Source: a virus
IMG/VR virus record: IMGVR_UViG_3300049044_000138
Length of the DNA stretch: 64,000 nt
Reading direction: 5' to 3' (one strand)
Part shown: one piece after another, positions 12,385 through 58,609 of the stretch
Layout of the letters: each line of letters opens with the position of its first letter
How positions within the stretch are numbered: position 1 is the first letter of the stretch
Made by a program: the position numbers and the translations under genes
Notes under the pieces: generated by a model
What the model was told of the DNA's origin: nothing
What the model saw: only the letters and a program-made list of their open reading frames with translations
The model's database searches: none

Positions 12385-14454
12385 CTATCGGTTTCCTAGT
12401 CTGTTCATCCAGCCCTGCTTGCGCTGAACTGGCCGGGTCCGCGCCTTGCGTGGTGGCGCGGCAGGTGGCGTGATCGCCGCCAACGGCTCCGGCACAGTAG
12501 CGCCCTGGTCCGGATCGTTGGCGGCTTGGCGTGGCAGAACGACGACACCCTGCTTCGGCCAGATGATGCGGAAGCCCTTGGGCACCCACAGCATATCGGT
12601 GCGCGATTGCGCAAAGGGCGGGCGCAGCAAGGCCACCTCGCCATAAACGAGAATATCCCAAGTCTCATTTCGAGCCCGGCGCTTCTCCCATTTGCCGTCC
12701 TTCAGCTCTTCCGCCGTGATCTCTTCGACATGTTCGTCGCTCAGATCTTCCGGCAGATGGATGTAGCCCGGTCCAGGCGCCGATCGGCGCAGGCGAGCAT
12801 CGATCATGTTCTTCACGACGTGGACGTTCGGAATCCACAGCTTCGCGCTGCTCCGCTTCGCCGTACCCTTCGCCTTCTGATCGGCGAACTGGCCGGGCGG
12901 CATCAGCTTGCCCGTCGGCTTTGACCCGCCCTTAACCAGCGTGATCCGGGTCGGATGCACGCCCAGAGCACGCGCCGCATTCCAGAACCATTTCGCGCCG
13001 GCGGTAGCCTGGTCGCCCTTGCGGTCGGAACCGCCCGTGTCGACGACCAATGACAGCACGGGGGCGTGACCGATCGGCTTCCCATCCTCGCCAAGCTCGG
13101 CCAGCGGATAAAGCCGATCGAACAGGCCGAGCAGCACTTTCCAATGTTCGGGATGCGTGAACGGCGCCACCTGCGTCAGGCCGTCGTCCAACACATCGAT
13201 CGCGAAGCGGTCAATCAGCCAGCTTTCCCGGTCCTTACCGTAGCCGACCGCGCCGCACTCGAACCGATCGTGCTGGACGTCGATCATGATGTTGATCACT
13301 TTGACGCCACGCGGCACCGTGCCGAGCTTCCACCCCGCCTCGCGGCGCTGCTTCAGCGCATCGGTCTCGACCGGCTTTTCGCCTGAGAGCACCGAACGAT
13401 AGTTCTGGCCGCCCTTGACGTTGAAGAACGCCTTAAGCGGCGCCTCATCCTGTCGCAGATCCCAGGCGATCTCGGCTTCCCGCCACTGCCGGGCCAGCTT
13501 GCCCCAAGTGGTGAAGGTCAGCAGACCGTCACGGCGGAATGTGCGACGCCGGCGCCCGACGTTGCGATTGCGGGCCACGAAGCCTCGGTTCGGCAGATCG
13601 GCCGTGCTGGCGATCAGGCGCGACCGTTCGGGCGGCAGCAAAATGCAGCCATTGGCCGGGCAGACGACATGCGCCGATTGCTCGGCCAACTCCAGTGAGC
13701 CGCGCTCGAACTTCAAATCGCGGCGAATATCCAGCTCGATCCGCTCTTCGCAGTGCGGGCACACCGGCTGCAGCCGTTCGTCGGTGCCGGCCTCGATAAA
13801 GGCCTCGATATTCGCCTTACGTGACCCCGGCTCCCATGCGGGCGAGGACGACACCAGGATCGTTTCCCGGCCCTCGAACGAAGTCATACGCCCATACATG
13901 AGCGATACGCCGTCGCCCTGACCGTCGATATCGGCAGGGAACTGGTCGAAGTCGTCGAGCCATCCGCGCTGGATGGATCGGGCGCGAGCCATGTTCGCCG
14001 GCCATGTCGATGTCAGCAACATGCCCCGGAACTGCTTCAGGAACATGTTGTCGGCGCTGGCAGTGGGCAGCAACTGAGCCTTCACCACCGGCGATTTCTC
14101 AATCATCACGCCGATGCGGCGGACGACGAAGTCCTGCATCAGCACCTTGTCGGGCTGCACTACCATGAACGGCGCGGGGCTATGTTCGATGGACCAGCCC
14201 ATAAAGGCTTCGCCCACCTTCGACTTGCCGGCCTGCGCTGGCCCCATGTCCCCGACTTCGGAAGTTTCCGGGTCGGAGCAGGCGTCCATGATCTCGGCCA
14301 GGAACGGCAGCGCGAGCGGATCATATTCGGGCAGATATTTTTCTGCCCATTGAGAAACGGTCAGCCCCTCTTTGGGGCGGATCAGCGACGCGAGCCGCCG
14401 AACAATGTCAAAGCCGGTTTCAAACGGCGGGATCTCGATCGGTCGATACAGCAT
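12385..14454 (-). CDS. terL: Terminase large subunit, GpA family
   Basis: LTVSQWAE; Walker A GPAQAGKS; CPHC zinc motif; IDVQHDRFE nuclease; RNETWDILVY; likely ATG at 14454. Confidence 0.95.
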   Translation of the reverse strand: MLYRPIEIPPFETGFDIVRRLASLIRPKEGLTVSQWAEKYLPEYDPLALPFLAEIMDACSDPETSEVGDMGPAQAGKSKVGEAFMGWSIEHSPAPFMVVQPDKVLMQDFVVRRIGVMIEKSPVVKAQLLPTASADNMFLKQFRGMLLTSTWPANMARARSIQRGWLDDFDQFPADIDGQGDGVSLMYGRMTSFEGRETILVSSSPAWEPGSRKANIEAFIEAGTDERLQPVCPHCEERIELDIRRDLKFERGSLELAEQSAHVVCPANGCILLPPERSRLIASTADLPNRGFVARNRNVGRRRRTFRRDGLLTFTTWGKLARQWREAEIAWDLRQDEAPLKAFFNVKGGQNYRSVLSGEKPVETDALKQRREAGWKLGTVPRGVKVINIMIDVQHDRFECGAVGYGKDRESWLIDRFAIDVLDDGLTQVAPFTHPEHWKVLLGLFDRLYPLAELGEDGKPIGHAPVLSLVVDTGGSDRKGDQATAGAKWFWNAARALGVHPTRITLVKGGSKPTGKLMPPGQFADQKAKGTAKRSSAKLWIPNVHVVKNMIDARLRRSAPGPGYIHLPEDLSDEHVEEITAEELKDGKWEKRRARNETWDILVYGEVALLRPPFAQSRTDMLWVPKGFRIIWPKQGVVVLPRQAANDPDQGATVPEPLAAITPPAAPPRKARTRPVQRKQGWMNRLGNR

Positions 14455-14998
14455 TGCCTGTTGCTCTTCCGATTCGCTCCATCCTGTCCGCAAGCTCCCG
14501 CTGATCCTGCGCGATCACCGCGTCGACGATCGCCAGCTGCTCGCGGCTGAAGTCACCCCTCTTCGCGAGCCGCGCCGACAACGACGTGCCCTGCTGCTGA
14601 AACCATGCGACCAGTTCGCCCAACGCTTCCTCGACGGAAGCCTTGTGGATCAGATCGCCCCGCTTCTCCGCCAGCTTCGTCGCCAGCAGCTCATTTTCCA
14701 TGATGGTGCGATGCTCGGTCGGAGAAAGTCCGACCTGCGTCTGCGCCATCGCTTCGCCGCCCAGCAGCGACAAACCATATTGGCGGATCTCATCGGCCCG
14801 CGCCCGCTGCACCTGCTCTTCGCTGTCGCGCAGGCTTTTGATGAAGGCCCAGGCATCGTCGAAATCGATCACATAGGACCGGCCATTCGTGCCGCGCTCG
14901 ATGATCGGGAAGTCCGGATAGTCCCGGATCATTGCCCGAAGCGTGGGCTCCGAAGGCGTCCCCGGCAGGGACGCAAATTCGCCTAGCGTGCCTCTCAC
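14420..14998 (-). CDS. terS: Terminase small subunit (Nu1-like)
   Basis: N-terminal winged HTH-like region (PIIERGTNGRSYVID) plus coiled coil; overlaps the terL start. Confidence 0.85.
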   Translation of the reverse strand: MRGTLGEFASLPGTPSEPTLRAMIRDYPDFPIIERGTNGRSYVIDFDDAWAFIKSLRDSEEQVQRARADEIRQYGLSLLGGEAMAQTQVGLSPTEHRTIMENELLATKLAEKRGDLIHKASVEEALGELVAWFQQQGTSLSARLAKRGDFSREQLAIVDAVIAQDQRELADRMERIGRATGNAVSTDRDPAV

Positions 14999-15324: not shown

Positions 15325-15774
15325 CTATGCGCGCATTTCTGCGCCATTCAGCGCATTGCAAATGCAGGTGATCGCGCGCGAGTAGCGCTTGCGCAGGCCG
15401 TGCGCCCCATGCCGGACGCCCATCGGCTTCAGTAGCTTCGTCCAGGGCACCGTCTTGCGACCAGCGGCAAGGTTGCGCACCGCCATGGCGATCAGCCGCC
15501 GATCGTCGTCGGACGGCACGAACAGCACCCATGCCAGCGCCTCTTCCATGCGCGCCAGCTGGTCGCGTGACAGCGGCACGCGCGGCACCGGCTTGTCCTC
15601 ATGCGCGCCCCAATCCCACCAGTCCTTGACGATCAGGTGCCACGGCCCGTCGGATGCGAATGGCCAGCCACCACCGCGGGGCAGGCGCTGCTGGAACTCC
15701 ATCGCCTCGACAAGGCGTGCCTGGACGCCATCGAATGTCCAGAAATCTGATCCTTCCAACTCCGGAACCATCAC
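15325..15774 (-). CDS. Putative late-gene regulator (DUF6362/Q-like position)
   Basis: WTFDGVQARLVEA...RMEEALAW...PW...RKRYSRA; last early gene before cos/terS. Confidence 0.6.
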   Translation of the reverse strand: MMVPELEGSDFWTFDGVQARLVEAMEFQQRLPRGGGWPFASDGPWHLIVKDWWDWGAHEDKPVPRVPLSRDQLARMEEALAWVLFVPSDDDRRLIAMAVRNLAAGRKTVPWTKLLKPMGVRHGAHGLRKRYSRAITCICNALNGAEMRA

Positions 15775-15777
15775 TCG

Positions 15778-16020
15778 CCAATCCTTCCGACGCTCAAACT
15801 ACTGAAAACCTTTGATCTTTTATCTATTCTGGAAGCTTTGGAAGCTTTGGAAGGAACTATGTATATTTTCATCACACATGCGCCCGCGCACACGCGCATA
15901 TGTGAGGGGAACATGTCGCCAATCCTTCCAATCCTTCCAAAGGCGCAGAAATCCGCGCTTTCTTCCTTCCGTCGAAGCTTCCGCCATCCTTCCAACCCGG
16001 AAGCTTTTGAACCTTCCGCG
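15778..16020. repeat. Iteron-like repeats with an AT-rich patch; candidate replication origin
   Basis: TGGAAGCTT x2 + TGGAAGGAA (15830-15856); oppositely oriented CCAATCCTT x2 + CCAA (15919-15940); more CTTCC copies; directly after the primase-helicase gene. Confidence 0.6.
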
Positions 16021-16031
16021 CCCCGCCGCGC

Positions 16032-19000
16032 TCAGAAGTCGGGCACGTAATCGTCCTGATATTGCGGTGGTGCATGTGCATCGTCGGGCGGCGCAGCGGG
16101 CGACTGCGCCCCATCGGGCAGCATCGGCACGTCCTCACGCACCTTCCCATTCTCGTCGACGAAGTCGCGGGCCTCGCGGACCAGCTTCATGCCGAGCCAC
16201 TGCATCCCGTCGCTGGCCTTCTTCTGAAAGCCCTTGTCGAGCATGGCCTTGCTGAAGCCCCTCTGCGTCCATTCACGCTCACCGGCGGCCTTGCACCAGG
16301 CCACGAACACTTCGTAGAGCCGGGACGACTGGATACGCCCTTGCGGGTCGACGGCCGTGCAGAGTTTCAGGAAGCGGGCCAGCGGGTCGCTATCCTCTCG
16401 ATACTGCGCCGTCGCCTCCCGCACCGCCTCAGGCTCCACCAGCCCATTGTCGAGCCAGTCCAGCAGGCCGCGCACCATATGATTGAGGACGCCAGCAGCT
16501 TCCGCGCGGAGTTTCGCGGGCAGCTGCTCGTCGCGATCCTGCTCCAGGACGTGCGCATTCCATGGCACAAGCTTCATGCGGCGCCAGATGCCTTCGTCCG
16601 TTCCCGGAATGTCGGGCTTATAGTTGCCGCCGATCGTCAGCTTGAACAGCGGCTGAAGATCGAAGAATCCGCGGTGCAACGCGCGCACCGCCATCGGCTC
16701 GCCACCCGTCGCCGCCTTGATCAGCGCTTCGTTCAGCTTCGCGCCGCGCTCCGGCTCCGACGCGCGAAGCATGCGCACGCCGCCCAGGCGCGCGAGATCC
16801 GGCGACGCCTGCTCACCGCGCTTCTTGATGCCCTGGTCGAGGAAGGTCTCGATCCCGATCGTGCCGGAATAGTCGCCCAGGACATAGGCCCACAAGTCGA
16901 TCGTGACGGACTTGCCGTTGCCGCCGAGGCCATACCAGAACTGCAGCTTCTGCTCCGATATGTCCCCGCTGGCGCTATAGCCCGCCCATTGATGCAGATA
17001 GCGCCGCATGCCCGGATCAGGCTGAGCCCATGCCAGGAAGCCGTCATAGACGACCGACACGGCATCCGGATCATAGGTGACCGGCGCGAGCTTCGTATTC
17101 AGATCCTCGCGGCGATGCGGCTCCAGCGTGACGCTCGCCCCATTTTCCTTGTCCCGCTTGAAGCGCAGCGTGCCGTTCAGCACGTTGATCGCCAACGGAT
17201 CTTGATCGAAGTCCTCGATCGGCGCCGTCACCCACCGTTTGGCGAGGCCGGCGATGCATCCGATCCGCCCCGATCCTTCCGACGCGCGACCCCATTTGAC
17301 GATCAGCTCCGACAGAATGACGGGGCCGCTCTTCCAATCGACGATCCGGTTCATCGCGCCGACCCGTCGTCCGCTATCGCGATAATAATGCCACTGCGTC
17401 GCCAGCATGATCGTCGGCTTGTCATCCTCGGGCAGCGGCTCATCCGGCTCAGCGAACCCGGTTGAGGCCACGAAATCGGCCTCGCGCTGGATCGAGCGCA
17501 CGGTATCGAACACGGCCGCCTGCACTTCCGCCGGCAGCGTGTCCTTGTCCTGGTCGAGCACCTTCCAGCGGCGGCCGTCCCAGCCCAGCCAGCCCTTGGC
17601 CGTGGTGAAGCGGAAGCTGCTGCCATAGCGAGCGTTGAACCGCTCGGCATTGCCGAGATCCGTGCGCTGGAATCCGGCGCAGCGCATGTCCAGCAGCATC
17701 GGCGCGATGTCGAAGCCCTTGGCCACGCCAGCGGCGAAGCTGCGCTCGATATCGTCGGCCGAGACATCCTCGACGCCCTCGGACACTTCGTCGATCGCGT
17801 CGTCGGCCATGTCCTGGTCGATCAGGCCCGCGCCGACGCGCCGGCCCATGCCCCAGGCGAACAGCGTCACGCCATCCTTCGTGCGCTCCGCTGCCTCGAT
17901 CATGCCGCTCAGCCGCTTTTCAGCGACCGCCTTTAGCCGATCCTGCACCTCCGCCGTCTGGTCGGAGAATTTCGCCTCCATGGTTCCAACCGGAAGCTTT
18001 TGATTCTCGACGACCCACCGGGGGGCAGGGGGGAACTCGGCATTGAAGAGCCCGCGCCAATAGGATTGATACTGCGCCCGCGTTTCCTCGTGCCGCACCG
18101 TGGCCGCGAGGTCGGCCAGCTGCTGCCAGATCGCCGCCCTTCCTTCCGGCGTGTCGCGATCGCCGGCGGCCAGCACCGCGGTCCAGACATAACTGGAGAG
18201 GGAAAGGCCGGTAGCGATCAGATCGTCGATCGCCTCACGTCCGCATTCGCGCACCAGGCTGTCGGGGTCGTAACCATCCGGAAGGGTCGCGATCTTCAGC
18301 GACCGACCCGGGCCAGCCATCGGAAGGGCGCGAACGCAGGCACGGGCGGCCGCCATGCGGCCCGCTTCGTCGCCATCCATCAGCAGCACCGGGCATTCCG
18401 TCACGCGCCACGCGCGCTCCAGCTGCTCGGCCGTGATCGCGGTGCCCATGGGCGCGACCGCCTCCTCGATCCCGGCCTGGTCGAGCGCGATCACGTCGAA
18501 ATAGCCTTCGACGACGACCAGCCGCCGCGCCGATCGCGCCGCCGGCGCCGCGCGGTGCAGGTTGAACAGCACGCGTCCCTTGTCGAAATGCTCCGACTGG
18601 TCGCTGTTCAGATATTTGGGCTGGGCTTCACCGAAGGCACGGCCGCCGAAGCCGATAGGGCGTCCGCGTGCGTCATGGATCGGAACCATGAGCCGATGCC
18701 GGAAGCGATCGCGGCGACCCTTTTCCGTGTCGACGACCAGGCCGGCCGCCATCAGCTGGTCGACCGCGATACCGATGGCGGAGATCCCGCCGCGCGCAGG
18801 CGCGAAGCCCAGGCCGAAGCGCTCGATCGCCGCGTCGTTCACGCCGCGCGCGGCCAGCGCCTCCATCGCGACGCCAGCCTGCTCCAGCTGCTGCGCATAC
18901 CAATCGGCCGCTTCGCCCAGCACTTGGCCGACATGCTCGACCCGCCGCGCCCGCTCAGCCTCTTCCGCCGTTCGTGCCGGCATATCCATGCCCGCGGCCG

Positions 19001-19265
19001 TCGCGAGCTGCTTCACCGCATCGATGAAGTCCATGCCCTCATGATCGGTGAGCCAGCGCAGCGCGTCGCCATGGGCGCCGCAACCGAAGCAATGGTAAAA
19101 TTCCTTGTCGTCATTGACGGTGAAGCTGGCCGTCTTTTCGCTATGGAACGGGCAGCAGCCCTTATGTTCCTTGCCCTTTTTCTCCAGCTTCACCTTCTGC
19201 CCGATCAGGGCGGAGAGCGGCGTGCGGGCGCGGATTTCATCCAGGAACGCAGTCGAAAGAGACAC
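16032..19265 (-). CDS. DnaG-type primase fused to a D5/P4-type SF3 helicase, 1077 aa
   Basis: CHC2 zinc finger (CCPFH...CFGC); TOPRIM (VVEGYFD, MDGDEAG); D5_N (TDLGNAERF); Walker A GLGGNGKS; motif C GGNYKP; C-terminal winged helix. Confidence 0.93.
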   Translation of the reverse strand: MSLSTAFLDEIRARTPLSALIGQKVKLEKKGKEHKGCCPFHSEKTASFTVNDDKEFYHCFGCGAHGDALRWLTDHEGMDFIDAVKQLATAAGMDMPARTAEEAERARRVEHVGQVLGEAADWYAQQLEQAGVAMEALAARGVNDAAIERFGLGFAPARGGISAIGIAVDQLMAAGLVVDTEKGRRDRFRHRLMVPIHDARGRPIGFGGRAFGEAQPKYLNSDQSEHFDKGRVLFNLHRAAPAARSARRLVVVEGYFDVIALDQAGIEEAVAPMGTAITAEQLERAWRVTECPVLLMDGDEAGRMAAARACVRALPMAGPGRSLKIATLPDGYDPDSLVRECGREAIDDLIATGLSLSSYVWTAVLAAGDRDTPEGRAAIWQQLADLAATVRHEETRAQYQSYWRGLFNAEFPPAPRWVVENQKLPVGTMEAKFSDQTAEVQDRLKAVAEKRLSGMIEAAERTKDGVTLFAWGMGRRVGAGLIDQDMADDAIDEVSEGVEDVSADDIERSFAAGVAKGFDIAPMLLDMRCAGFQRTDLGNAERFNARYGSSFRFTTAKGWLGWDGRRWKVLDQDKDTLPAEVQAAVFDTVRSIQREADFVASTGFAEPDEPLPEDDKPTIMLATQWHYYRDSGRRVGAMNRIVDWKSGPVILSELIVKWGRASEGSGRIGCIAGLAKRWVTAPIEDFDQDPLAINVLNGTLRFKRDKENGASVTLEPHRREDLNTKLAPVTYDPDAVSVVYDGFLAWAQPDPGMRRYLHQWAGYSASGDISEQKLQFWYGLGGNGKSVTIDLWAYVLGDYSGTIGIETFLDQGIKKRGEQASPDLARLGGVRMLRASEPERGAKLNEALIKAATGGEPMAVRALHRGFFDLQPLFKLTIGGNYKPDIPGTDEGIWRRMKLVPWNAHVLEQDRDEQLPAKLRAEAAGVLNHMVRGLLDWLDNGLVEPEAVREATAQYREDSDPLARFLKLCTAVDPQGRIQSSRLYEVFVAWCKAAGEREWTQRGFSKAMLDKGFQKKASDGMQWLGMKLVREARDFVDENGKVREDVPMLPDGAQSPAAPPDDAHAPPQYQDDYVPDF

Positions 19266-19390: not shown

Positions 19391-20053
19391 TCAGCCCGGA
19401 TCGGGATCGACCGGCGCGAGCAGATCCGGAGCCCGGAACGGCGTCAGGACATCATAGACACAAAGATTCTCGATCGCGGCCGCGTCCCAGACGCACCAGA
19501 TCACTTCCATGGTCGGCGCACCCTTGCCGAGAAAATCCGGCCGCCAGTTCAGCGCGTAGATCCGCGACGGCGTGCGCTGCCGCCAAAGGCCCGTGCGGAC
19601 CTGCGCATGCCAGAAGGTCGACTTCAGCAGCATGGCGACATAGGTGCAGCCCAGGTCGCCATGCAGATGCCGGATCATTTCCTCCGCCAGCGTGAAGGGC
19701 GGGTTCGTCACCACCACCGGCGAAAGCGCCTGCCGGCAAAGCAGGAGATCCTGCTGCGTCACCCGATGCTCCGGATCGGCGACTAGGTCGGTCGCGATCG
19801 TCACGAAGCCAGCCGCTTCCAGCTCGCCCGAGATCGCACCGCCACGGCCGCACGGCTCCCATACCGGATTGACCAGATCGCAGGCGTCGAGCAGATGCTC
19901 CCGCTCTGCCGCGATGAACGCGCGAGTGACCGTTGCCGGCGTCGGATAATAATCATTGCCCTGCCGCTCGACCTTCGCCCCGCCGGTCATCATGCGGCCG
20001 AGGCCCTTCGGAGCCGGCCCGGCGATCGCCGGTTCGGGGAACATGTCAGTCAC
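19391..20053 (-). CDS. Orphan DNA amino-methyltransferase (probably N6-adenine)
   Basis: DYYPTP; SAM-binding WEPCGRGG; catalytic TNPPF. Confidence 0.85.
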   Translation of the reverse strand: MTDMFPEPAIAGPAPKGLGRMMTGGAKVERQGNDYYPTPATVTRAFIAAEREHLLDACDLVNPVWEPCGRGGAISGELEAAGFVTIATDLVADPEHRVTQQDLLLCRQALSPVVVTNPPFTLAEEMIRHLHGDLGCTYVAMLLKSTFWHAQVRTGLWRQRTPSRIYALNWRPDFLGKGAPTMEVIWCVWDAAAIENLCVYDVLTPFRAPDLLAPVDPDPG

Positions 20054-20337: not shown

Positions 20338-21468
20338 TCAGACCCGCAGCGGCATCAGGACGTAAAGCCCAGCCGCTTCCTCGCTATTTTGCCAAAGGGA
20401 GGGAGCTGTCGGGTCCGCCAGCAGCACCCGGGCGCGCGTCCCTTCGGCTCCGGTGCCCTTCAGCTGCGCCAGAATGTCGAGCAGGAAGCGGCCGTTGAAG
20501 CCGATGCGCAGCGCATCCCCGTTGAACTCGCACGGCACGTCCTCGCTGGCCGTCCCCGTTTCTGGGCTGACAACCTCCAGCGTGATCGCCTTCGCCTCGA
20601 AATTCACCGCGATCGTCTTCGTCTTGTCGCTGCTGATCGTCAGCACGCGCTCAACCGCTTCCGCCAGCGGACCGGGCTCGAACCAGCAATCGAGCCTGTT
20701 GCTCACCGGAATGACGCGCGAATATTCCGGGAAGGCCCCGTCGATCGTCTTGCCGGTGAGAACGGTCTTGCCGATCTCGAAGCGGAAGCGCTGAGTGCTG
20801 ACAGACACGCCCACCGTGCCGCCTTCCTCATCCAGAAGCTGGCTCAGCGTGGCGATGGCCTTGCGCGGGATGATGATGCCGGGCATTCCTTCCGCGCCGT
20901 CCAGCACCTCCCAATGATAGCGGGCGAGACGGTTGCCATCGGTCGCGGCCGCGAATTGGCAGCTGCTGCCGTCGGGCACATGGACATAGATCCCGTTCAG
21001 ATAATAACGGGTCTCTTCGTTTGCGATCGCGAACTTCACGCTTTCGATCAGCTTGATCAGCTGCGTCGCGTCCTGCTCCCATTCGGCATCCCAATCGCCC
21101 ATCGCGATGGTCGGGAAATCGTCGGTCGGCAGGGTGTTGAGCTTGAAGCGAGCCCGGCCGCACTTGATCGTGATGCCGGTATTGCCGTCCGGCGCGATCG
21201 ACGCGATGCCTTCGGTCGGCAGCTTGGCCGCGATCGAAGCGAGCGTCGAGGCATCGACGCAGAAGTTCATCGCCTTGTTTGCCCCGGCATCCTCCAGGTC
21301 GACGATCTTCTCGACCATGATATCGAGGTCGGTGCTGGTCAGGAACATCTGCCCGGGCGTCGACGTGATCAGCACATGCGACAGGATCGGGATGGTGTTG
21401 CGGGTTTCGACGACCGCTTTGATCGCCTTCAGCGCGCCGCGCAGCGCCTTCACCTTCACCTGCATCAT
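20338..21468 (-). CDS. dnaN: DNA polymerase III beta sliding clamp homologue, 376 aa
   Basis: RNTIPILSHVL, TDLDI, ETRYYLNG, ATDGNRLA, IDGAFPEY, IGFNGRFLLD, LMPLRV; true start 21468 (ATGA overlap), not 21876. Confidence 0.95.
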   Translation of the reverse strand: MMQVKVKALRGALKAIKAVVETRNTIPILSHVLITSTPGQMFLTSTDLDIMVEKIVDLEDAGANKAMNFCVDASTLASIAAKLPTEGIASIAPDGNTGITIKCGRARFKLNTLPTDDFPTIAMGDWDAEWEQDATQLIKLIESVKFAIANEETRYYLNGIYVHVPDGSSCQFAAATDGNRLARYHWEVLDGAEGMPGIIIPRKAIATLSQLLDEEGGTVGVSVSTQRFRFEIGKTVLTGKTIDGAFPEYSRVIPVSNRLDCWFEPGPLAEAVERVLTISSDKTKTIAVNFEAKAITLEVVSPETGTASEDVPCEFNGDALRIGFNGRFLLDILAQLKGTGAEGTRARVLLADPTAPSLWQNSEEAAGLYVLMPLRV

Positions 21469-21917
21469 GCCGCGATATCCTTGTCGAGGGCGCCGTCGAG
21501 CAGCGCGATCATGGCCATCACCGGCCGTTGCCCGGTCGCTCGGGCGTGCTGACAGACCCGCTCCCATGTCGGAGCCCAGCGATCGCGGATGATGCCGGTC
21601 GCAAGCGATGGCGCACCCTCCAGCGCCTTTTCCTGCAACTGCGTGCCCAGCGACACGTCCTGGAACAGGTTCGTCGGCACCGGATCGGCTTCCACGGGCT
21701 CGACGACTGGAGCCGGCGCAGGCGACGGGCGCATCGAAGGCACCAGGGCGAGATCGAACTGGTGGATCTTCCCTTCCTGCCGCAGCTGCTGGACGGCGGC
21801 CGCGAACGCACCGACCTTCAGGCCGGTCAGGCGACGCAGATCCGGCATCGTCCAGCCGCCCACGGGCGTTTTGCACCGCTGCAGCTCCAAAATAATCCTA
21901 TCGGCAGCTTCGCTCAC
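21465..21917 (-). CDS. Hypothetical protein with an N-terminal winged HTH
   Basis: WTMPDLRRLTGLKVGAFAAAVQQLRQEGKI; coupled at both ends. Confidence 0.7.
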   Translation of the reverse strand: MSEAADRIILELQRCKTPVGGWTMPDLRRLTGLKVGAFAAAVQQLRQEGKIHQFDLALVPSMRPSPAPAPVVEPVEADPVPTNLFQDVSLGTQLQEKALEGAPSLATGIIRDRWAPTWERVCQHARATGQRPVMAMIALLDGALDKDIAA

Positions 21918-24535: not shown

Positions 24536-24760
24536 CTATTGTAGGTCGGTCGCCCCCGCAGTTGCGCCGCCACCAGAAAGGGGTCGAGGAGCGGCGGCGA
24601 TCTGCTGTTGGGTTTCGCGGTCGATTTCGTCGGCCCAATTCTCGGCCAGGTCGAAACCGATGCCGAAGATTTCGGCCAGATCGGCGAGCATGCAGCGTCC
24701 GACCTGGTTATAGCGGGCCTCGAAATGGCGGCGGGTGATGGTCATGTCGACGAAGGTCAT
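24536..24760 (-). CDS. Small hypothetical protein
   Basis: 74 aa from ATG 24760 (ATGA overlap). Confidence 0.6.
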   Translation of the reverse strand: MTFVDMTITRRHFEARYNQVGRCMLADLAEIFGIGFDLAENWADEIDRETQQQIAAAPRPLSGGGATAGATDLQ

Positions 24761-26745: not shown

Positions 26746-26984
26746 CACTCACCCCCTCCGATATTTTGATCTGAGCTATCGGGTGACGGAACCTGTTCCG
26801 CATCCGTATCAAGAGGCCACGGAAGCCCTTCGGCCTTCGCGGCGAGTTTCAGATGGGCGAGACGCGAAAGGGGAATGCCATTTTTCCGCCAGCTGTGGAC
26901 AGTCGAGGGGGGCACCAAGGTCATGCGCGAAACCGCAGTCGTCCCGCCCAATCCGTCGATAATATGGTTCGCTTCGTCGCTCAT
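26745..26984 (-). CDS. cro: Cro-like repressor
   Basis: IIDGLGGTTAVSRMTLVPPSTVHSWRKNGIP HTH; divergent from cI. Confidence 0.85.
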   Translation of the reverse strand: MSDEANHIIDGLGGTTAVSRMTLVPPSTVHSWRKNGIPLSRLAHLKLAAKAEGLPWPLDTDAEQVPSPDSSDQNIGGGE

Positions 26985-26995
26985 GGTCCGAGCTA

Positions 26996-27057
26996 TGCGA
27001 TAATCGCACAGTCTAAGCAAGTGAATTTATGCGACAATAGCAATTGCAGCCATCGCA
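26996..27057. promoter_or_regulatory. Three operator sites between cro and cI
   Basis: TGCGAT-A-ATCGCA (26996-27008), TGCGAC-A-ATAGCA (27030-27042), TGCAGC-C-ATCGCA (27045-27057). Confidence 0.75.
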
Positions 27058-27077
27058 TGGGTTCGCAATCTCGAGGC

Positions 27078-27635
27078 ATGGACCCCGAAGAGATCTTACA
27101 GCTGCTGGACGCGCGCGGAATTAGCCAATCCGAGCTGGCGCGACGGATCGACCTTGATCAGGATAAGCTCAACAAATCGCTGCGCGGAAAACGGAAAATC
27201 AGCGTGAAGGAGATGGAGGCCATCAAAGCCGTCTTGATCCAAGAGCATGCGCAGCCTACCCGTTCGATCCCAGTGATAGGTCAGATCTCAGCAGGCAACT
27301 GGCGCGAAGCGATCCAGCATCCGATCGACGCAATCCCCATGCCGGATAGCTCGATCCCGCCCCGCGCATTTGGCCTCCGCGTCAGTGGCGATTCGATGGA
27401 TCTCTTGGTCGATGATGGCGCGCTGATCATCGTGGACCCGGATGACCGGGTCCTCTTCAATGATAGATATTACGCTGTTTTGAACGCAGACGGCGAAGCC
27501 ACGTTCAAGCAATTTAAGACCGACCCCGCTCGGCTCGCGCCTTGCTCGACAAACCCCGCCCATCGCGAGATCGTTCTGGGTGATGAGTTCTATGAGGTGA
27601 TCGGCCGGATAATCTGGCGCGCCTCTCGGATGTAA
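27078..27635 (+). CDS. cI: CI repressor (HTH + S24 autopeptidase)
   Basis: ISQSELARRI HTH; Ala-Gly cleavage site (ISAGNW); GDSM and TFKQ Ser-Lys dyad; start 27078 or 27057. Confidence 0.92.
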   Translation: MDPEEILQLLDARGISQSELARRIDLDQDKLNKSLRGKRKISVKEMEAIKAVLIQEHAQPTRSIPVIGQISAGNWREAIQHPIDAIPMPDSSIPPRAFGLRVSGDSMDLLVDDGALIIVDPDDRVLFNDRYYAVLNADGEATFKQFKTDPARLAPCSTNPAHREIVLGDEFYEVIGRIIWRASRM

Positions 27636-29592: not shown

Positions 29593-29801
29593 ACGCGTTC
29601 AGCGTCCTCGATCTCGCGCTGGCCATTGCCGAAGACATGGCGGCAGAGGATGCTGCGCGCGAGTTCGAATCACAGAGAGACTTCACCCATGAGCTGGGCA
29701 CCGGAAGGCACCCGCGTCGCAATCTACGCGCGCTTCAGCACGGACATGCAGAACGCCCTAAGCGCCGAGGATCAGATCAGGCTCTGTCGAGCCTACGCTG
29801 A
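29589..29801 (+). CDS. Small ORF overlapping the integrase start
   Basis: ATGA coupling to the upstream gene; 70 aa; 3' half overlaps int out of frame. Confidence 0.4.
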   Translation: MNAFSVLDLALAIAEDMAAEDAAREFESQRDFTHELGTGRHPRRNLRALQHGHAERPKRRGSDQALSSLR

Positions 29802-31335
29802 ACGGCAGGGCTGGCAGGTCGTCGACGCCTATTCTGACGCGGCCATTTCAGGACAGAACAAGCACCGCCCCGGGCTGAACGCGATGCTCGCCGCCGCCGA
29901 TCGGCGCGACTTCGATATCGTCCTTTCGGAATCGCTCGACCGTATCGCCCGCGATCTAGGCGACACGGCCGAGATCTACCGCCGCCTGGAGTTCGCCAGG
30001 GTCGCGCTGTTCACCTGCTCCGACAACCGCGTAACCGAACTTCACATCGGCTTCATCGGCACGATGAGCGCCCTCTACGTGAAGGAGCTGGGCAGCAAGA
30101 TCCGCCGAGGCGGGAAGGGGCAGGTCGGACGCGGCCGAGTGCCGGGCGGCCGCTGCTATGGCTATGACGTGACGCCGGTCGTGAACAGCGACGGATCGGT
30201 CGAGTTCGGGCACCGCGCCATCAATGAGGAAGAGGCCGCGGTCGTCCGCCGGATCTTCCGGGAATATGCCGAAGGCGTCCCGCCTCGCACCATCGCCCAC
30301 AAGTTGAACGCGGAAGGCGTCCCTTCGCCGCGCGGCACCGAATGGCGCGCAAGCACCATCAACGGGTCGGCAGCACGTGACTATGGCATCCTGCGCAACC
30401 CGATCTATGTCGGTCGCATCCGCTACGGCCGCGTCCGCATGGTGCGCGACCCCAATTCCCGCAAGCGGCTGTCGCGGGTCGACGTCCAGCCGGACATTGT
30501 CGAGGGCGAAGCGCCACACCTGCGCATCATCGACGATGCGCTCTGGTCGATCGTCCAGGAGCGGAAAGAAGATCTCGCCCATGTCCCGTTCCATCGGCAG
30601 CGCCGGGCGCGGCATGTGTTGAGCGGCCTGGTCCGGTGCGGATGCGGCGGCACTTATACGATAGTGTCGAAAGACCGTTGGGCCTGCTCCCGGCATAAGG
30701 AGGCGGGCACCTGCGACAATGGCCGCCGGATCTCCACCGGCCGCCTTGAACAGCGGGTTCTATCCGGCCTGCAGGACCGGCTCCTAGATCCGGAGATCAT
30801 CCGCGCAGTGGTGAAACGTTATCATGATGCGCGGACGCAAGCGCGAGCAAAACTCCAGTCTTCGCGCTACCGGGCAGAGGAACGGGTCGACCAGCTGAAG
30901 GGCGAGATCCGCAACCTGGTCAACGCGATCGCCGCCGGTGCCGACATGGATGAAGTGAAAGAAGCGCTGAAGGACCGCAAGGCAGCGCTCGCGTCGGCCG
31001 AAGCCGCCTTGGCCGAGCATGAAGCCGTCCCGGCCATCATCCTGCATCCACAGATCGTCGAAGCATACCGGCGCAAGATCCGCCAGCTGGGCGACGCGCT
31101 CACCAGTGGCGAGCAGGCACAGAAATATCTCCCGATGATCCGCGACCTGGTCGAGGCCGTGATTGTGCGGGATGACGAAAACGCGCCCGATCGCGCGTCC
31201 CTGGAGCTGGTCGGAAATCTGTCAGCAGTGCTTGCGATCGCGACAGGAAAGCCTGTGCCAATGAAGCGGACTGTAAAGGTGGTAGCGGAGGAACGTTACC
31301 GCCTCGACAGTCCGCTGAAGAAGTTCCGGGTTTAG
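29689..31335 (+). CDS. int: Large serine integrase
   Basis: AIYARFST catalytic Ser; SESLDRIAR; recombinase domain (GRCYGY, LRNPIYVG); zinc ribbon (CGCGG...C...C); coiled coil; likely start 29689. Confidence 0.95.
   Translation: MSWAPEGTRVAIYARFSTDMQNALSAEDQIRLCRAYAERQGWQVVDAYSDAAISGQNKHRPGLNAMLAAADRRDFDIVLSESLDRIARDLGDTAEIYRRLEFARVALFTCSDNRVTELHIGFIGTMSALYVKELGSKIRRGGKGQVGRGRVPGGRCYGYDVTPVVNSDGSVEFGHRAINEEEAAVVRRIFREYAEGVPPRTIAHKLNAEGVPSPRGTEWRASTINGSAARDYGILRNPIYVGRIRYGRVRMVRDPNSRKRLSRVDVQPDIVEGEAPHLRIIDDALWSIVQERKEDLAHVPFHRQRRARHVLSGLVRCGCGGTYTIVSKDRWACSRHKEAGTCDNGRRISTGRLEQRVLSGLQDRLLDPEIIRAVVKRYHDARTQARAKLQSSRYRAEERVDQLKGEIRNLVNAIAAGADMDEVKEALKDRKAALASAEAALAEHEAVPAIILHPQIVEAYRRKIRQLGDALTSGEQAQKYLPMIRDLVEAVIVRDDENAPDRASLELVGNLSAVLAIATGKPVPMKRTVKVVAEERYRLDSPLKKFRV
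31265..31316. other. Putative attP inside the integrase 3' end
   Basis: Imperfect 52-bp palindrome AGCGGACTGT-AA-AGGTGGTAGCG-GAGGAA-CGTTACCGCCT-CG-ACAGTCCGCT centred on GG 31290/31291; minus strand TCCTCCGCTACCA resembles a tRNA 3' end. Confidence 0.75.
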
Positions 31336-55375: not shown

Positions 55376-58300
55376 TCAGAAGTCGGGCACGTAATCGTCC
55401 TGATATTGCGGTGGTGCATGTGCATCGTCGGGCGGCGCAGCGGGCGACTGCGCCCCATCGGGCAGCATCGGCACGTCCTCACGCACCTTCCCATTCTCGT
55501 CGACGAAGTCGCGGGCCTCGCGGACCAGCTTCATGCCGAGCCACTGCATCCCGTCGCTGGCCTTCTTCTGAAAGCCCTTGTCGAGCATGGCCTTGCTGAA
55601 GCCCCTCTGCGTCCATTCACGCTCACCGGCGGCCTTGCACCAGGCCACGAACACTTCGTAGAGCCGGGACGACTGGATACGCCCTTGCGGGTCGACGGCC
55701 GTGCAGAGTTTCAGGAAGCGGGCCAGCGGGTCGCTATCCTCTCGATACTGCGCCGTCGCCTCCCGCACCGCCTCAGGCTCCACCAGCCCATTGTCGAGCC
55801 AGTCCAGCAGGCCGCGCACCATATGATTGAGGACGCCAGCAGCTTCCGCGCGGAGTTTCGCGGGCAGCTGCTCGTCGCGATCCTGCTCCAGGACGTGCGC
55901 ATTCCATGGCACAAGCTTCATGCGGCGCCAGATGCCTTCGTCCGTTCCCGGAATGTCGGGCTTATAGTTGCCGCCGATCGTCAGCTTGAACAGCGGCTGA
56001 AGATCGAAGAATCCGCGGTGCAACGCGCGCACCGCCATCGGCTCGCCACCCGTCGCCGCCTTGATCAGCGCTTCGTTCAGCTTCGCGCCGCGCTCCGGCT
56101 CCGACGCGCGAAGCATGCGCACGCCGCCCAGGCGCGCGAGATCCGGCGACGCCTGCTCACCGCGCTTCTTGATGCCCTGGTCGAGGAAGGTCTCGATCCC
56201 GATCGTGCCGGAATAGTCGCCCAGGACATAGGCCCACAAGTCGATCGTGACGGACTTGCCGTTGCCGCCGAGGCCATACCAGAACTGCAGCTTCTGCTCC
56301 GATATGTCCCCGCTGGCGCTATAGCCCGCCCATTGATGCAGATAGCGCCGCATGCCCGGATCAGGCTGAGCCCATGCCAGGAAGCCGTCATAGACGACCG
56401 ACACGGCATCCGGATCATAGGTGACCGGCGCGAGCTTCGTATTCAGATCCTCGCGGCGATGCGGCTCCAGCGTGACGCTCGCCCCATTTTCCTTGTCCCG
56501 CTTGAAGCGCAGCGTGCCGTTCAGCACGTTGATCGCCAACGGATCTTGATCGAAGTCCTCGATCGGCGCCGTCACCCACCGTTTGGCGAGGCCGGCGATG
56601 CATCCGATCCGCCCCGATCCTTCCGACGCGCGACCCCATTTGACGATCAGCTCCGACAGAATGACGGGGCCGCTCTTCCAATCGACGATCCGGTTCATCG
56701 CGCCGACCCGTCGTCCGCTATCGCGATAATAATGCCACTGCGTCGCCAGCATGATCGTCGGCTTGTCATCCTCGGGCAGCGGCTCATCCGGCTCAGCGAA
56801 CCCGGTTGAGGCCACGAAATCGGCCTCGCGCTGGATCGAGCGCACGGTATCGAACACGGCCGCCTGCACTTCCGCCGGCAGCGTGTCCTTGTCCTGGTCG
56901 AGCACCTTCCAGCGGCGGCCGTCCCAGCCCAGCCAGCCCTTGGCCGTGGTGAAGCGGAAGCTGCTGCCATAGCGAGCGTTGAACCGCTCGGCATTGCCGA
57001 GATCCGTGCGCTGGAATCCGGCGCAGCGCATGTCCAGCAGCATCGGCGCGATGTCGAAGCCCTTGGCCACGCCAGCGGCGAAGCTGCGCTCGATATCGTC
57101 GGCCGAGACATCCTCGACGCCCTCGGACACTTCGTCGATCGCGTCGTCGGCCATGTCCTGGTCGATCAGGCCCGCGCCGACGCGCCGGCCCATGCCCCAG
57201 GCGAACAGCGTCACGCCATCCTTCGTGCGCTCCGCTGCCTCGATCATGCCGCTCAGCCGCTTTTCAGCGACCGCCTTTAGCCGATCCTGCACCTCCGCCG
57301 TCTGGTCGGAGAATTTCGCCTCCATGGTTCCAACCGGAAGCTTTTGATTCTCGACGACCCACCGGGGGGCAGGGGGGAACTCGGCATTGAAGAGCCCGCG
57401 CCAATAGGATTGATACTGCGCCCGCGTTTCCTCGTGCCGCACCGTGGCCGCGAGGTCGGCCAGCTGCTGCCAGATCGCCGCCCTTCCTTCCGGCGTGTCG
57501 CGATCGCCGGCGGCCAGCACCGCGGTCCAGACATAACTGGAGAGGGAAAGGCCGGTAGCGATCAGATCGTCGATCGCCTCACGTCCGCATTCGCGCACCA
57601 GGCTGTCGGGGTCGTAACCATCCGGAAGGGTCGCGATCTTCAGCGACCGACCCGGGCCAGCCATCGGAAGGGCGCGAACGCAGGCACGGGCGGCCGCCAT
57701 GCGGCCCGCTTCGTCGCCATCCATCAGCAGCACCGGGCATTCCGTCACGCGCCACGCGCGCTCCAGCTGCTCGGCCGTGATCGCGGTGCCCATGGGCGCG
57801 ACCGCCTCCTCGATCCCGGCCTGGTCGAGCGCGATCACGTCGAAATAGCCTTCGACGACGACCAGCCGCCGCGCCGATCGCGCCGCCGGCGCCGCGCGGT
57901 GCAGGTTGAACAGCACGCGTCCCTTGTCGAAATGCTCCGACTGGTCGCTGTTCAGATATTTGGGCTGGGCTTCACCGAAGGCACGGCCGCCGAAGCCGAT
58001 AGGGCGTCCGCGTGCGTCATGGATCGGAACCATGAGCCGATGCCGGAAGCGATCGCGGCGACCCTTTTCCGTGTCGACGACCAGGCCGGCCGCCATCAGC
58101 TGGTCGACCGCGATACCGATGGCGGAGATCCCGCCGCGCGCAGGCGCGAAGCCCAGGCCGAAGCGCTCGATCGCCGCGTCGTTCACGCCGCGCGCGGCCA
58201 GCGCCTCCATCGCGACGCCAGCCTGCTCCAGCTGCTGCGCATACCAATCGGCCGCTTCGCCCAGCACTTGGCCGACATGCTCGACCCGCCGCGCCCGCTC

Positions 58301-58609
58301 AGCCTCTTCCGCCGTTCGTGCCGGCATATCCATGCCCGCGGCCGTCGCGAGCTGCTTCACCGCATCGATGAAGTCCATGCCCTCATGATCGGTGAGCCAG
58401 CGCAGCGCGTCGCCATGGGCGCCGCAACCGAAGCAATGGTAAAATTCCTTGTCGTCATTGACGGTGAAGCTGGCCGTCTTTTCGCTATGGAACGGGCAGC
58501 AGCCCTTATGTTCCTTGCCCTTTTTCTCCAGCTTCACCTTCTGCCCGATCAGGGCGGAGAGCGGCGTGCGGGCGCGGATTTCATCCAGGAACGCAGTCGA
58601 AAGAGACAC
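55376..58609 (-). CDS. DnaG-SF3 primase-helicase (copy 2)
   Basis: Repeat of 16032..19265. Confidence 0.93.
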   Translation of the reverse strand: MSLSTAFLDEIRARTPLSALIGQKVKLEKKGKEHKGCCPFHSEKTASFTVNDDKEFYHCFGCGAHGDALRWLTDHEGMDFIDAVKQLATAAGMDMPARTAEEAERARRVEHVGQVLGEAADWYAQQLEQAGVAMEALAARGVNDAAIERFGLGFAPARGGISAIGIAVDQLMAAGLVVDTEKGRRDRFRHRLMVPIHDARGRPIGFGGRAFGEAQPKYLNSDQSEHFDKGRVLFNLHRAAPAARSARRLVVVEGYFDVIALDQAGIEEAVAPMGTAITAEQLERAWRVTECPVLLMDGDEAGRMAAARACVRALPMAGPGRSLKIATLPDGYDPDSLVRECGREAIDDLIATGLSLSSYVWTAVLAAGDRDTPEGRAAIWQQLADLAATVRHEETRAQYQSYWRGLFNAEFPPAPRWVVENQKLPVGTMEAKFSDQTAEVQDRLKAVAEKRLSGMIEAAERTKDGVTLFAWGMGRRVGAGLIDQDMADDAIDEVSEGVEDVSADDIERSFAAGVAKGFDIAPMLLDMRCAGFQRTDLGNAERFNARYGSSFRFTTAKGWLGWDGRRWKVLDQDKDTLPAEVQAAVFDTVRSIQREADFVASTGFAEPDEPLPEDDKPTIMLATQWHYYRDSGRRVGAMNRIVDWKSGPVILSELIVKWGRASEGSGRIGCIAGLAKRWVTAPIEDFDQDPLAINVLNGTLRFKRDKENGASVTLEPHRREDLNTKLAPVTYDPDAVSVVYDGFLAWAQPDPGMRRYLHQWAGYSASGDISEQKLQFWYGLGGNGKSVTIDLWAYVLGDYSGTIGIETFLDQGIKKRGEQASPDLARLGGVRMLRASEPERGAKLNEALIKAATGGEPMAVRALHRGFFDLQPLFKLTIGGNYKPDIPGTDEGIWRRMKLVPWNAHVLEQDRDEQLPAKLRAEAAGVLNHMVRGLLDWLDNGLVEPEAVREATAQYREDSDPLARFLKLCTAVDPQGRIQSSRLYEVFVAWCKAAGEREWTQRGFSKAMLDKGFQKKASDGMQWLGMKLVREARDFVDENGKVREDVPMLPDGAQSPAAPPDDAHAPPQYQDDYVPDF

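Follow-up and report, generated by a model that had tools for sequence, protein, structure and literature searches.

Gene and domain organization of P0001

The window analysed here is a stretch of viral DNA of 64,000 nucleotides (IMG/VR record IMGVR_UViG_3300049044_000138), which contains on its minus strand the gene of a 1077-residue protein, referred to below as P0001 (Table 1). In this protein, a primase of the bacterial DnaG type is followed by a helicase of superfamily 3 (SF3) and a winged helix, and a single chain is predicted to unite DNA primase, replicative helicase, and origin-binding domain. The original prediction, made from the sequence of the window, had read in it a CHC2 zinc finger, an RNA-polymerase/TOPRIM core, a helical bundle, a linker, D5_N, an SF3 ATPase, and a winged helix, and this reading is correct according to Pfam, NCBIfam, and an AlphaFold2 model.

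The primase half matches the dnaG equivalog-domain model TIGR01391 (residues 4–400, 388.8 bits, cut-off 283.6), while the helicase half matches TIGR01613, "phage/plasmid primase, P4 family" (residues 713–1004, 212.3 bits, cut-off 108.7). The Pox_D5 profile (PF03288) covers residues 957–1018 with 24.9 bits, at a cut-off of 21.4. In PHROGs the two halves fall in two separate "DNA primase" families. After residue 400 the D5 modules are the sole Pfam matches, and the DnaB-binding (helicase-interaction) C-terminal domain of DnaG is absent. The Pfam search also does not find the P4-type primase core, consisting of PF08273 and a minimal Toprim_3, with PF13362 (Toprim_3) scoring below its cut-off. The region C-terminal to the primase is occupied by D5_N and SF3 and not by a helicase of superfamily 4 (SF4, the DnaB/RecA fold).

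Residue conservation was assessed in an alignment of 62 full-length homologues, which are 40–91% identical to P0001. Invariant in the primase are the zinc ligands Cys38, His41, Cys59, and Cys62, as well as the basic residues Lys217, Asn220, and Lys229; in Toprim they comprise Glu253-Gly254, Asp257, Asp297-Gly-Asp299, and Asp333-Pro-Asp335. The invariant residues of the SF3 part are Gly779 and Asn783-Gly-Lys-Ser786 of Walker A, Glu837 of Walker B, Asn881 of sensor 1 (motif C), and Arg896, with Arg895 nearly invariant. Judged by sequence, the catalytic residues of both primase and helicase are intact across the family, and the primase module corresponds to the complete zinc-binding and RNA-polymerase part of a bacterial DnaG that has lost its DnaB-binding C-terminal domain.

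Predicted structure

The AlphaFold2 model of P0001, built on the alignment of 62 homologues, has a mean predicted local distance difference test score (pLDDT) of 85.5 and a predicted TM-score (pTM) of 0.53. The DnaG part is modelled confidently up to residue 410, pLDDT dips to 51–58 at residues 411–432, and a confident five-helix bundle occupies residues 433–530. This bundle leads to D5_N, the ATPase, and the winged helix, and the chain ends with a disordered tail (residues 1049–1077). In Foldseek comparisons, the DnaG core of the model superimposes on the catalytic cores of DnaGs from E. coli, P. aeruginosa, and others (1dd9, 3b39, 5vaz) with TM-scores of 0.83–0.86 and root-mean-square deviations of 2.3–3.0, whereas the C-terminal 590–700 residues match C962R of African swine fever virus (ASFV), a protein in which an archaeo-eukaryotic primase (AEP) precedes D5_N and SF3. 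A sequence search of the PDB agrees with the fold matches, returning DnaG cores at E ~1e-58 and weak matches for the SF3 part.

Distribution of the fusion

The same full-length architecture is present in about 60 clusters (90% identity level, 49–91% identity) of a large protein database. These clusters derive from NCBI isolates and from JGI, ENA, and Logan assemblies; many of the proteins are encoded on contigs of 34–52 kb and some on chromosomes of megabase size. Of the 75 best IMG/VR loci, 35 include the N-terminal as well as the C-terminal end of the protein, and for 24 of these the alignment is one unbroken high-scoring segment pair. The genomes of four Sphingobium species carry the fusion as a prophage gene, in addition to a dnaG of their own that encodes 624–645 residues. 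A full-length match is found in at least two of 401 Sphingomonadaceae species genomes, a lower bound given that two candidates were scored per genome. Both halves together are found in none of 50,697 deposited phage genomes, where tblastn matched 1320 records but none across both halves. Nor did a search for near-identical DNA among deposited phages yield a match.

At 50% clustering, the sphingomonad family is reduced to one representative. The top 150 matches include further fused lineages (P0095, P0123, P0124, P0171, and P0243), all with Zn_ribbon_DnaG, DNAG_N, Toprim, and D5_N, and all except P0124 also with DUF5906 and Pox_D5. P0171 and P0243 form long branches.

Since the same uninterrupted open reading frame (ORF) occurs in many independent records, an assembly chimera is excluded, as the original prediction had supposed, although its own argument, the identical frame of two copies in the window, falls away. 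The 64,000-nucleotide window is a record of 39,344 bp wrapped 1.6 times (period 39,344, no mismatches over the 24,656 overlapping nucleotides); features below position 24,657 recur at +39,344, and the gene at 55376–58609 is the same gene as that at 16032–19265. The record is thus circularly permuted or wrapped, and the "two copies" are one gene. The architecture is frequent in temperate phages of sphingomonads, not rare, and the outcome that the original prediction had named as refuting it applies: it belongs to a common family, described by Iyer (2008) and Kazlauskas (2016) and seen here in the 60 or so clusters and at least 35 IMG/VR loci.

Origin of the DnaG cassette

The DnaGs of the four Sphingobium lysogens, taken as the host comparators, align with residues 1–411/424 of P0001 at 48–50% identity. 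There the alignment ends, and the host proteins run on into the linker and the DnaB-binding domain. The N-terminal part of P0001 is 45–57% identical to the chromosomal DnaGs of the 401 Sphingomonadaceae genomes, 31–50% to those of a class sample of 100 genomes (which included G444, a genome that was placed in no tree and supports no claim made here), and mostly 35–45% to those of a phylum sample.

A phylogeny of the DnaG part against host dnaG, as the original prediction had advised, was computed from 62 DnaG cores with IQ-TREE (LG+C20 PMSF), and a FastTree analysis of 121 rows agrees with it. The fused proteins form, together with proteins of 574–634 residues, one clade with an SH-aLRT support of 99. 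This clade lies within a larger one (support 96) that contains the chromosomal DnaGs of the family and leaves other alphaproteobacterial sequences outside. Because the cassette branches beside chromosomal Sphingomonadaceae DnaG, it appears to be a captured gene of the host lineage and not a phage primase of the T7/P4 type. In a second fused lineage, P0095, P0123, and P0124, the DnaG part falls among the DnaGs of other alphaproteobacteria, a placement pointing to a separate capture of DnaG.

Five of the six shorter proteins interleaved with the fusions (P0157, P0163, P0164, P0188, and P0213) consist of DnaG with a C-terminal GapR-like DNA-binding domain (PF10073), whereas no C-terminal domain was detected in the sixth, P0146. 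The GapR-fused DnaGs, of about 590–630 residues, belong to the same mobile DnaG clade and carry GapR in the place of the helicase.

One apparent phage comparator was discarded. The DnaG match in "Klebsiella phage ST13-OXA48phi12.1" (L113, MK422453.1 1300-3063) adjoins the gene of 30S ribosomal protein S21, and it looks like the host rpsU-dnaG operon at a prophage boundary.

Exchange of the priming module and split forms

Outside the set of DnaG fusions, the helicase half is most closely related to proteins of about 1000 residues that carry Prim-Pol (AEP, PF09250) in the N-terminal position, such as P0065. From residue 419–443 to the end they are 63–67% identical to P0001, whereas many DnaG-bearing members reach only about 50%. 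Homology to host DnaG stops at residues 411–424, that to DnaG-GapR proteins at 404–465 (most at 452–465), and that to the closest Prim-Pol proteins starts at 419–443. The joint of the exchange (residues 411–443) coincides with the low-confidence hinge of the model.

In trees of the SF3 domain, bearers of DnaG and of Prim-Pol are interleaved. A count of label changes in the FastTree phylogeny (14 for DnaG) was rejected as inflated by partial sequences, and a reduced IQ-TREE set and the approximately unbiased (AU) test were used instead. In the reduced set, well-supported branches force three changes of primase type, and the AU test rejects the grouping of all DnaG bearers in one clade (delta lnL 64.6, p = 0.00026). 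The DnaG module behaves as an exchangeable cassette, and a repeated exchange of DnaG and Prim-Pol on one helicase chassis has statistical support.

In eight IMG/VR loci and a prophage of Sphingorhabdus type, the protein is encoded by two genes, cut at query residues 365–367 | 368–372. In these split forms, the helicase polypeptide contains the two final helices of the DnaG core (373–410). The gap between the pieces varies from 27 nt to 1.36 kb. It is occupied in L159 by the gene of a C5 DNA methyltransferase, in L191 by that of an N6/N4 methyltransferase, and in L091 and L161 by an ORF of low GC content on the opposite strand. A self-splicing intron was considered for the 1.2-kb interruption of the Sphingorhabdus-type gene and rejected, as there is no Rfam match, the three frames differ, and an opposite-strand ORF lies inside. 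An intein was rejected as well, the inserts being out of frame and encoding DNA methyltransferases in other loci. The gene of one IMG/VR contig (L137, 3230-3239) changes frame precisely at the hinge, where two frames overlap (residues 411–413); the cause is a frameshift from sequencing or else a split of another kind.

Comparison with known systems

Most multidomain D5-like helicases bear an N-terminal AEP or DnaG primase, and such displacement of one primase by the other in situ marks functional equivalence (Iyer 2008). SF3 helicases are combined with DnaG in 14% of cases, and phiAsp2 has a DnaG-SF3-PolA protein (Kazlauskas 2016, PMC4889955). The DnaG–SF3 fusion has been known as a design since 2005, and P0001 is a well-documented example of it, not a new kind of protein.

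The gp-alpha protein of phage P4, described as a "bacterial DnaG-type" primase with a D5-family SF3 helicase and a winged-helix origin binder (PMC4889955), is colinear with P0001 in its zinc module, Toprim primase, D5_N, SF3 ATPase, and Pox_D5 winged helix. In P4 the cis-acting crr repeats lie directly downstream of alpha, where iterons follow the gene of P0001. As gp-alpha does, P0001 would start, as a single protein, the replication of a temperate element that relies on host DNA polymerase III (Pol III). However, gp-alpha carries the T7/P4-type Zn_Ribbon_Prim (PF08273) and a minimal Toprim_3 (PF13362) with no match to Zn_ribbon_DnaG or DNAG_N, is 300 residues shorter, and shows a BLASTP identity of only 24%, over the ATPase. 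In P0001, a full DnaG of cellular type and apparent host lineage is followed by an additional hinge and helical bundle.

Proteins that combine Prim-Pol, D5_N, SF3, and winged helix (pRN1 ORF904 and the sphingomonad P0065) share the C-terminal chassis from about residue 433, with up to 67% identity in sphingomonad prophages. They differ in their N-terminal AEP (PF09250), a non-homologous displacement of the priming module. Chromosomal DnaG of bacteria has the zinc-binding and RNA-polymerase domains of P0001 with all motifs, but P0001 lacks the DnaB-binding domain and is covalently joined to an SF3 motor of presumed 3'-5' polarity instead of docking on the 5'-3' helicase DnaB.

The primase is likewise N-terminal to a ring helicase within one chain in T7 gp4 and Twinkle, although their helicase is of the SF4 type, moves 5'-3', and acts on the lagging strand, and their zinc ribbon is of the T7 type, not CHC2. 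T7 gp4 also has an acidic C-terminal tail with a terminal aromatic residue, as does P0001. Poxvirus D5/E5 and ASFV C962R, the best structural match for the C-terminal half, share with P0001 the D5_N collar, the SF3 motor, and the C-terminal winged helix and supply a geometric model with the primases at the fork; they differ in their AEP primase, in belonging to eukaryotic viruses, and in a sequence identity of 14–15%.

The original prediction had also pointed to a mismatch of polarity between a DnaG primase and a helicase moving 3'-5'. The question is not special to P0001 and applies equally to P4 alpha, pRN1 ORF904, and poxvirus D5/E5. Translocation in the 3'-5' direction is documented for pRN1 ORF904 (PMC2777425). 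In the structures of mpox E5, in which D5_N forms the collar typical of D5/E5-type helicases, the motor moves toward the N-terminal primases, which thereby occupy the fork in front of it, close to the lagging strand (PMC12137749). By analogy, this geometry suggests an answer to the puzzle for P0001 as well.

Phage genome, candidate origin, and C-terminal tail

The context annotation covers the larger ORFs, scanned with PHROG and Pfam, and indicates that the record is a temperate siphovirus of 39.3 kb with a sphingomonad host, and the close homologues of P0001 are all from Sphingomonas or Sphingobium. A known plasmid was rejected as an identity, the plasmid collection having yielded only chromid or host dnaG-like partial matches. 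The genes recognized include those for virion assembly, lysogeny control, and integration (Table 1). The scanned ORFs include no DNA polymerase, no DnaB-type helicase, no loader, and no second primase, and the fusion and a beta sliding clamp, whose gene belongs to the early operon of the fusion, are the only recognizable replication enzymes. The clamp ORF as listed has 512 residues with the clamp domains starting at residue 140, and its first ~135 codons overlap the ORF at 21465–21917; its true start is probably further downstream.

Table 1. Features of the P0001 gene, of its surroundings in the window, and of split relatives on other contigs
Feature	Position	Strand	Basis
Whole gene, DnaG-primase/SF3-helicase/winged-helix fusion (P0001)	16032..19265	-	GTG start, 1077 aa, 0 internal stops
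CHC2 zinc-binding domain, residues 5-98	18972..19253	-	Zn_ribbon_DnaG PF01807, 116.5 bits; invariant C38, H41, C59, C62
DnaG RNA-polymerase core: DNAG_N 123-239 (PF08275) and Toprim 248-337 (PF13662)	18255..18899	-	Pfam, NCBIfam, invariant residues, Foldseek, PDB sequence search
Helical subdomain closing the DnaG core, residues ~343-410	18036..18239	-	AlphaFold2 secondary structure; split loci
Flexible hinge (module joint), residues 411-432, pLDDT 51-58	17970..18035	-	AlphaFold2 model; homology limits
Five-helix bundle, residues 433-530, part of helicase chassis, common to Prim-Pol-bearing relatives	17676..17969	-	AlphaFold2 model, alignments
D5_N (PF08706), residues 540-746, contains insertion	17028..17648	-	51.1 bits, cut-off 22.4
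P4-family SF3 ATPase, residues 713-1004	16254..17129	-	TIGR01613; motif residues; weak PDB sequence matches, strong ASFV C962R fold matches
C-terminal winged helix (Pox_D5), residues 957-1030, presumed origin-binding domain	16176..16397	-	PF03288; AlphaFold2 helix/strand pattern; P4 alpha analogy
Disordered Pro-rich acidic tail, residues 1049-1077, terminus DDYVPDF	16035..16121	-	AlphaFold2 model, tail survey
Candidate replication origin directly downstream of gene	15752..16019	.	TTGGAAGS iterons in both orientations around AT-rich patch
Three-domain beta sliding clamp	20338..21876	-	PF00712/PF02767/PF02768
DNA methyltransferase	19391-20053		PHROG/Pfam
Lambda-like large terminase	12385-14493		PHROG/Pfam
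Head-tail joining protein, portal, protease-capsid fusion, tail fibre, and tape-measure genes			PHROG/Pfam
CI-type S24 repressor	26853-27635	+	PHROG/Pfam
CII-like protein			PHROG/Pfam
Large serine integrase	29626-31335		PHROG/Pfam
ParB-like proteins (two)			PHROG/Pfam
Split loci	L091 5189-9671; L154, L157-L161, L173, L191

The motif TTGGAAGS occurs six times per genome unit, always within 15752–15995 and nowhere else; 3.4 copies per 64 kb are expected by chance, and no shuffle reached 12. Two relatives with identities of 87% and 78%, L002 (13273-13439) and L004 (13332-13443), have the same cluster of iterons immediately behind the gene. The iterons are candidate binding sites presumably read by the winged helix, a role assigned by analogy with P4 alpha. 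A sequence downstream of orf904 is required by pRN1 (PMC4234260).

Across 193 family members, the C-terminal 30 residues carry a net charge of -6 and contain six prolines (medians). In 45 of 67 tails of the DnaG type and in 31 of 83 of the Prim-Pol type, the chain terminates in an acidic run and then a hydrophobic-Pro element, and endings in the helicase family include DD[FYW]VP[DG]F, DDDDYVPF, DDDVPF, and DDEIPF. The terminus of P0001, DDYVPDF, resembles DDEVPF, that of the single-strand-binding protein (SSB) of host Sphingobium (L116–L118). Partners drawn to the canonical SSB tip, DDDIPF, are numerous and include DnaG (PMC5872125), and a literature search returned nothing relevant on SSB-tip-like tails in P4-family primases. 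We can speculate, tentatively, that the tail mimics the C-terminal tip of SSB and might plug the 3'-5' SF3 primase-helicase of phages without a polymerase into the Pol III machinery of the host, for example through the clamp-loader subunit chi. If so, this contact would replace the DnaB-tau and DnaG-SSB contacts discarded by the fusion.

Proposed function and alternatives

P0001 most probably serves a temperate sphingomonad siphovirus as its replication initiator, as its helicase, and as its primase, and is built on the plan of P4 alpha. The one-protein initiator-primosome of the original prediction is, by comparison with homologues, the best-supported function. The C-terminal winged helix would bind the TTGGAAGS iterons that immediately follow the gene, and the D5_N collar and the SF3 ATPase would form a hexamer, melt the origin, and translocate 3'->5' on the leading-strand template; we infer the hexameric 3'-5' helicase activity by analogy. 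At the fork, the N-terminal face would bear six DnaG modules, each connected through the flexible hinge and the helical bundle, and these would synthesize RNA primers with the excluded lagging strand as template. Host Pol III, aided by the beta clamp of the phage, would carry out elongation.

Several points weigh against this interpretation and the history proposed for the cassette. In this clade, priming, the formation of hexamers, polarity, and the binding of iterons are each deduced from homologues, and at a pTM of only 0.53 the relative placement of the domains in the model is uninformative. The authors of the mpox E5 structures saw no origin-binding role for its winged helix (PMC12137749), which leaves P4 as the sole basis for assigning origin binding. 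In the DnaG tree, the clade of the cassette stands as sister to the family's sampled DnaGs and is not nested among them, so that the donor may have been a sphingomonad outside the sample or a mobile lineage of greater age; the "REP" rows of this tree carry no taxonomy. Finally, the group subjected to the AU test was chosen after inspection of the first FastTree.

An alternative that we consider unlikely would limit the SF3 part to recognizing and melting the origin and to priming, with the unwinding of the fork passed to host DnaB, making the protein an initiator-primase and not a replicative helicase. The role of the helicase domain of pRN1 ORF904 has been described as unclear and possibly one of origin remodelling (PMC2777425), and a phage that depends on the host polymerase may depend on the host helicase as well. 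However, removal of the DnaB-binding domain has abolished the usual DnaG-DnaB coupling, and the residues of the SF3 motor are all invariant. The replication of P4, moreover, is independent of DnaB, DnaC, and DnaG.

A DnaG module without activity, serving as an adaptor for DNA binding or regulation while something else does the priming, is far less probable still. Inactivated enzyme domains do act as origin binders in other SF3 helicases (PMC4889955), which is nothing specific to P0001, whereas in the 62 sequences no change occurs in its zinc ligands, the Toprim Glu, the acidic DxD and DPD clusters, or the basic KYxNS region, its TIGR01391 score exceeds the equivalog cut-off, and no other primase is present among the ORFs scanned. 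That two neighbouring genes were joined into the long ORF by an assembly error or a frameshift has a negligible chance of being correct, for all the two-gene versions in some relatives and the frame change at the hinge of L137, as the uninterrupted ORF recurs in some 60 clusters of independent sources, four isolate genomes, and 24 IMG/VR loci and its junction is a conserved, confidently folded segment.

Implications

What the system described here adds to the known design is the apparent host-lineage origin of its DnaG, a repeated exchange between DnaG and Prim-Pol that has statistical support and is located at one hinge, relatives in split or GapR-fused form, downstream iterons that are conserved, and the SSB-tip-like tail.

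The gene dnaG serves as a marker in genome-quality and phylogenomic pipelines. Public records label the fusion simply "DNA primase", and each of the four lysogens checked (G001–G004) has two TIGR01391 matches above the equivalog cut-off, one to the host dnaG and one to the prophage fusion. As the fusion exceeds this cut-off and bears this name in the databases, prophage fusions can be mistaken for the host dnaG marker, or duplicate it, in such pipelines.

For the family itself, the comparison amounts to a natural swap experiment, in which host-derived DnaG and Prim-Pol are placed on helicases 60–67% identical through one hinge, with fused, split, and GapR-fused states available in addition. 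The family thus offers ready constructs for the question of what a primase needs from its helicase.

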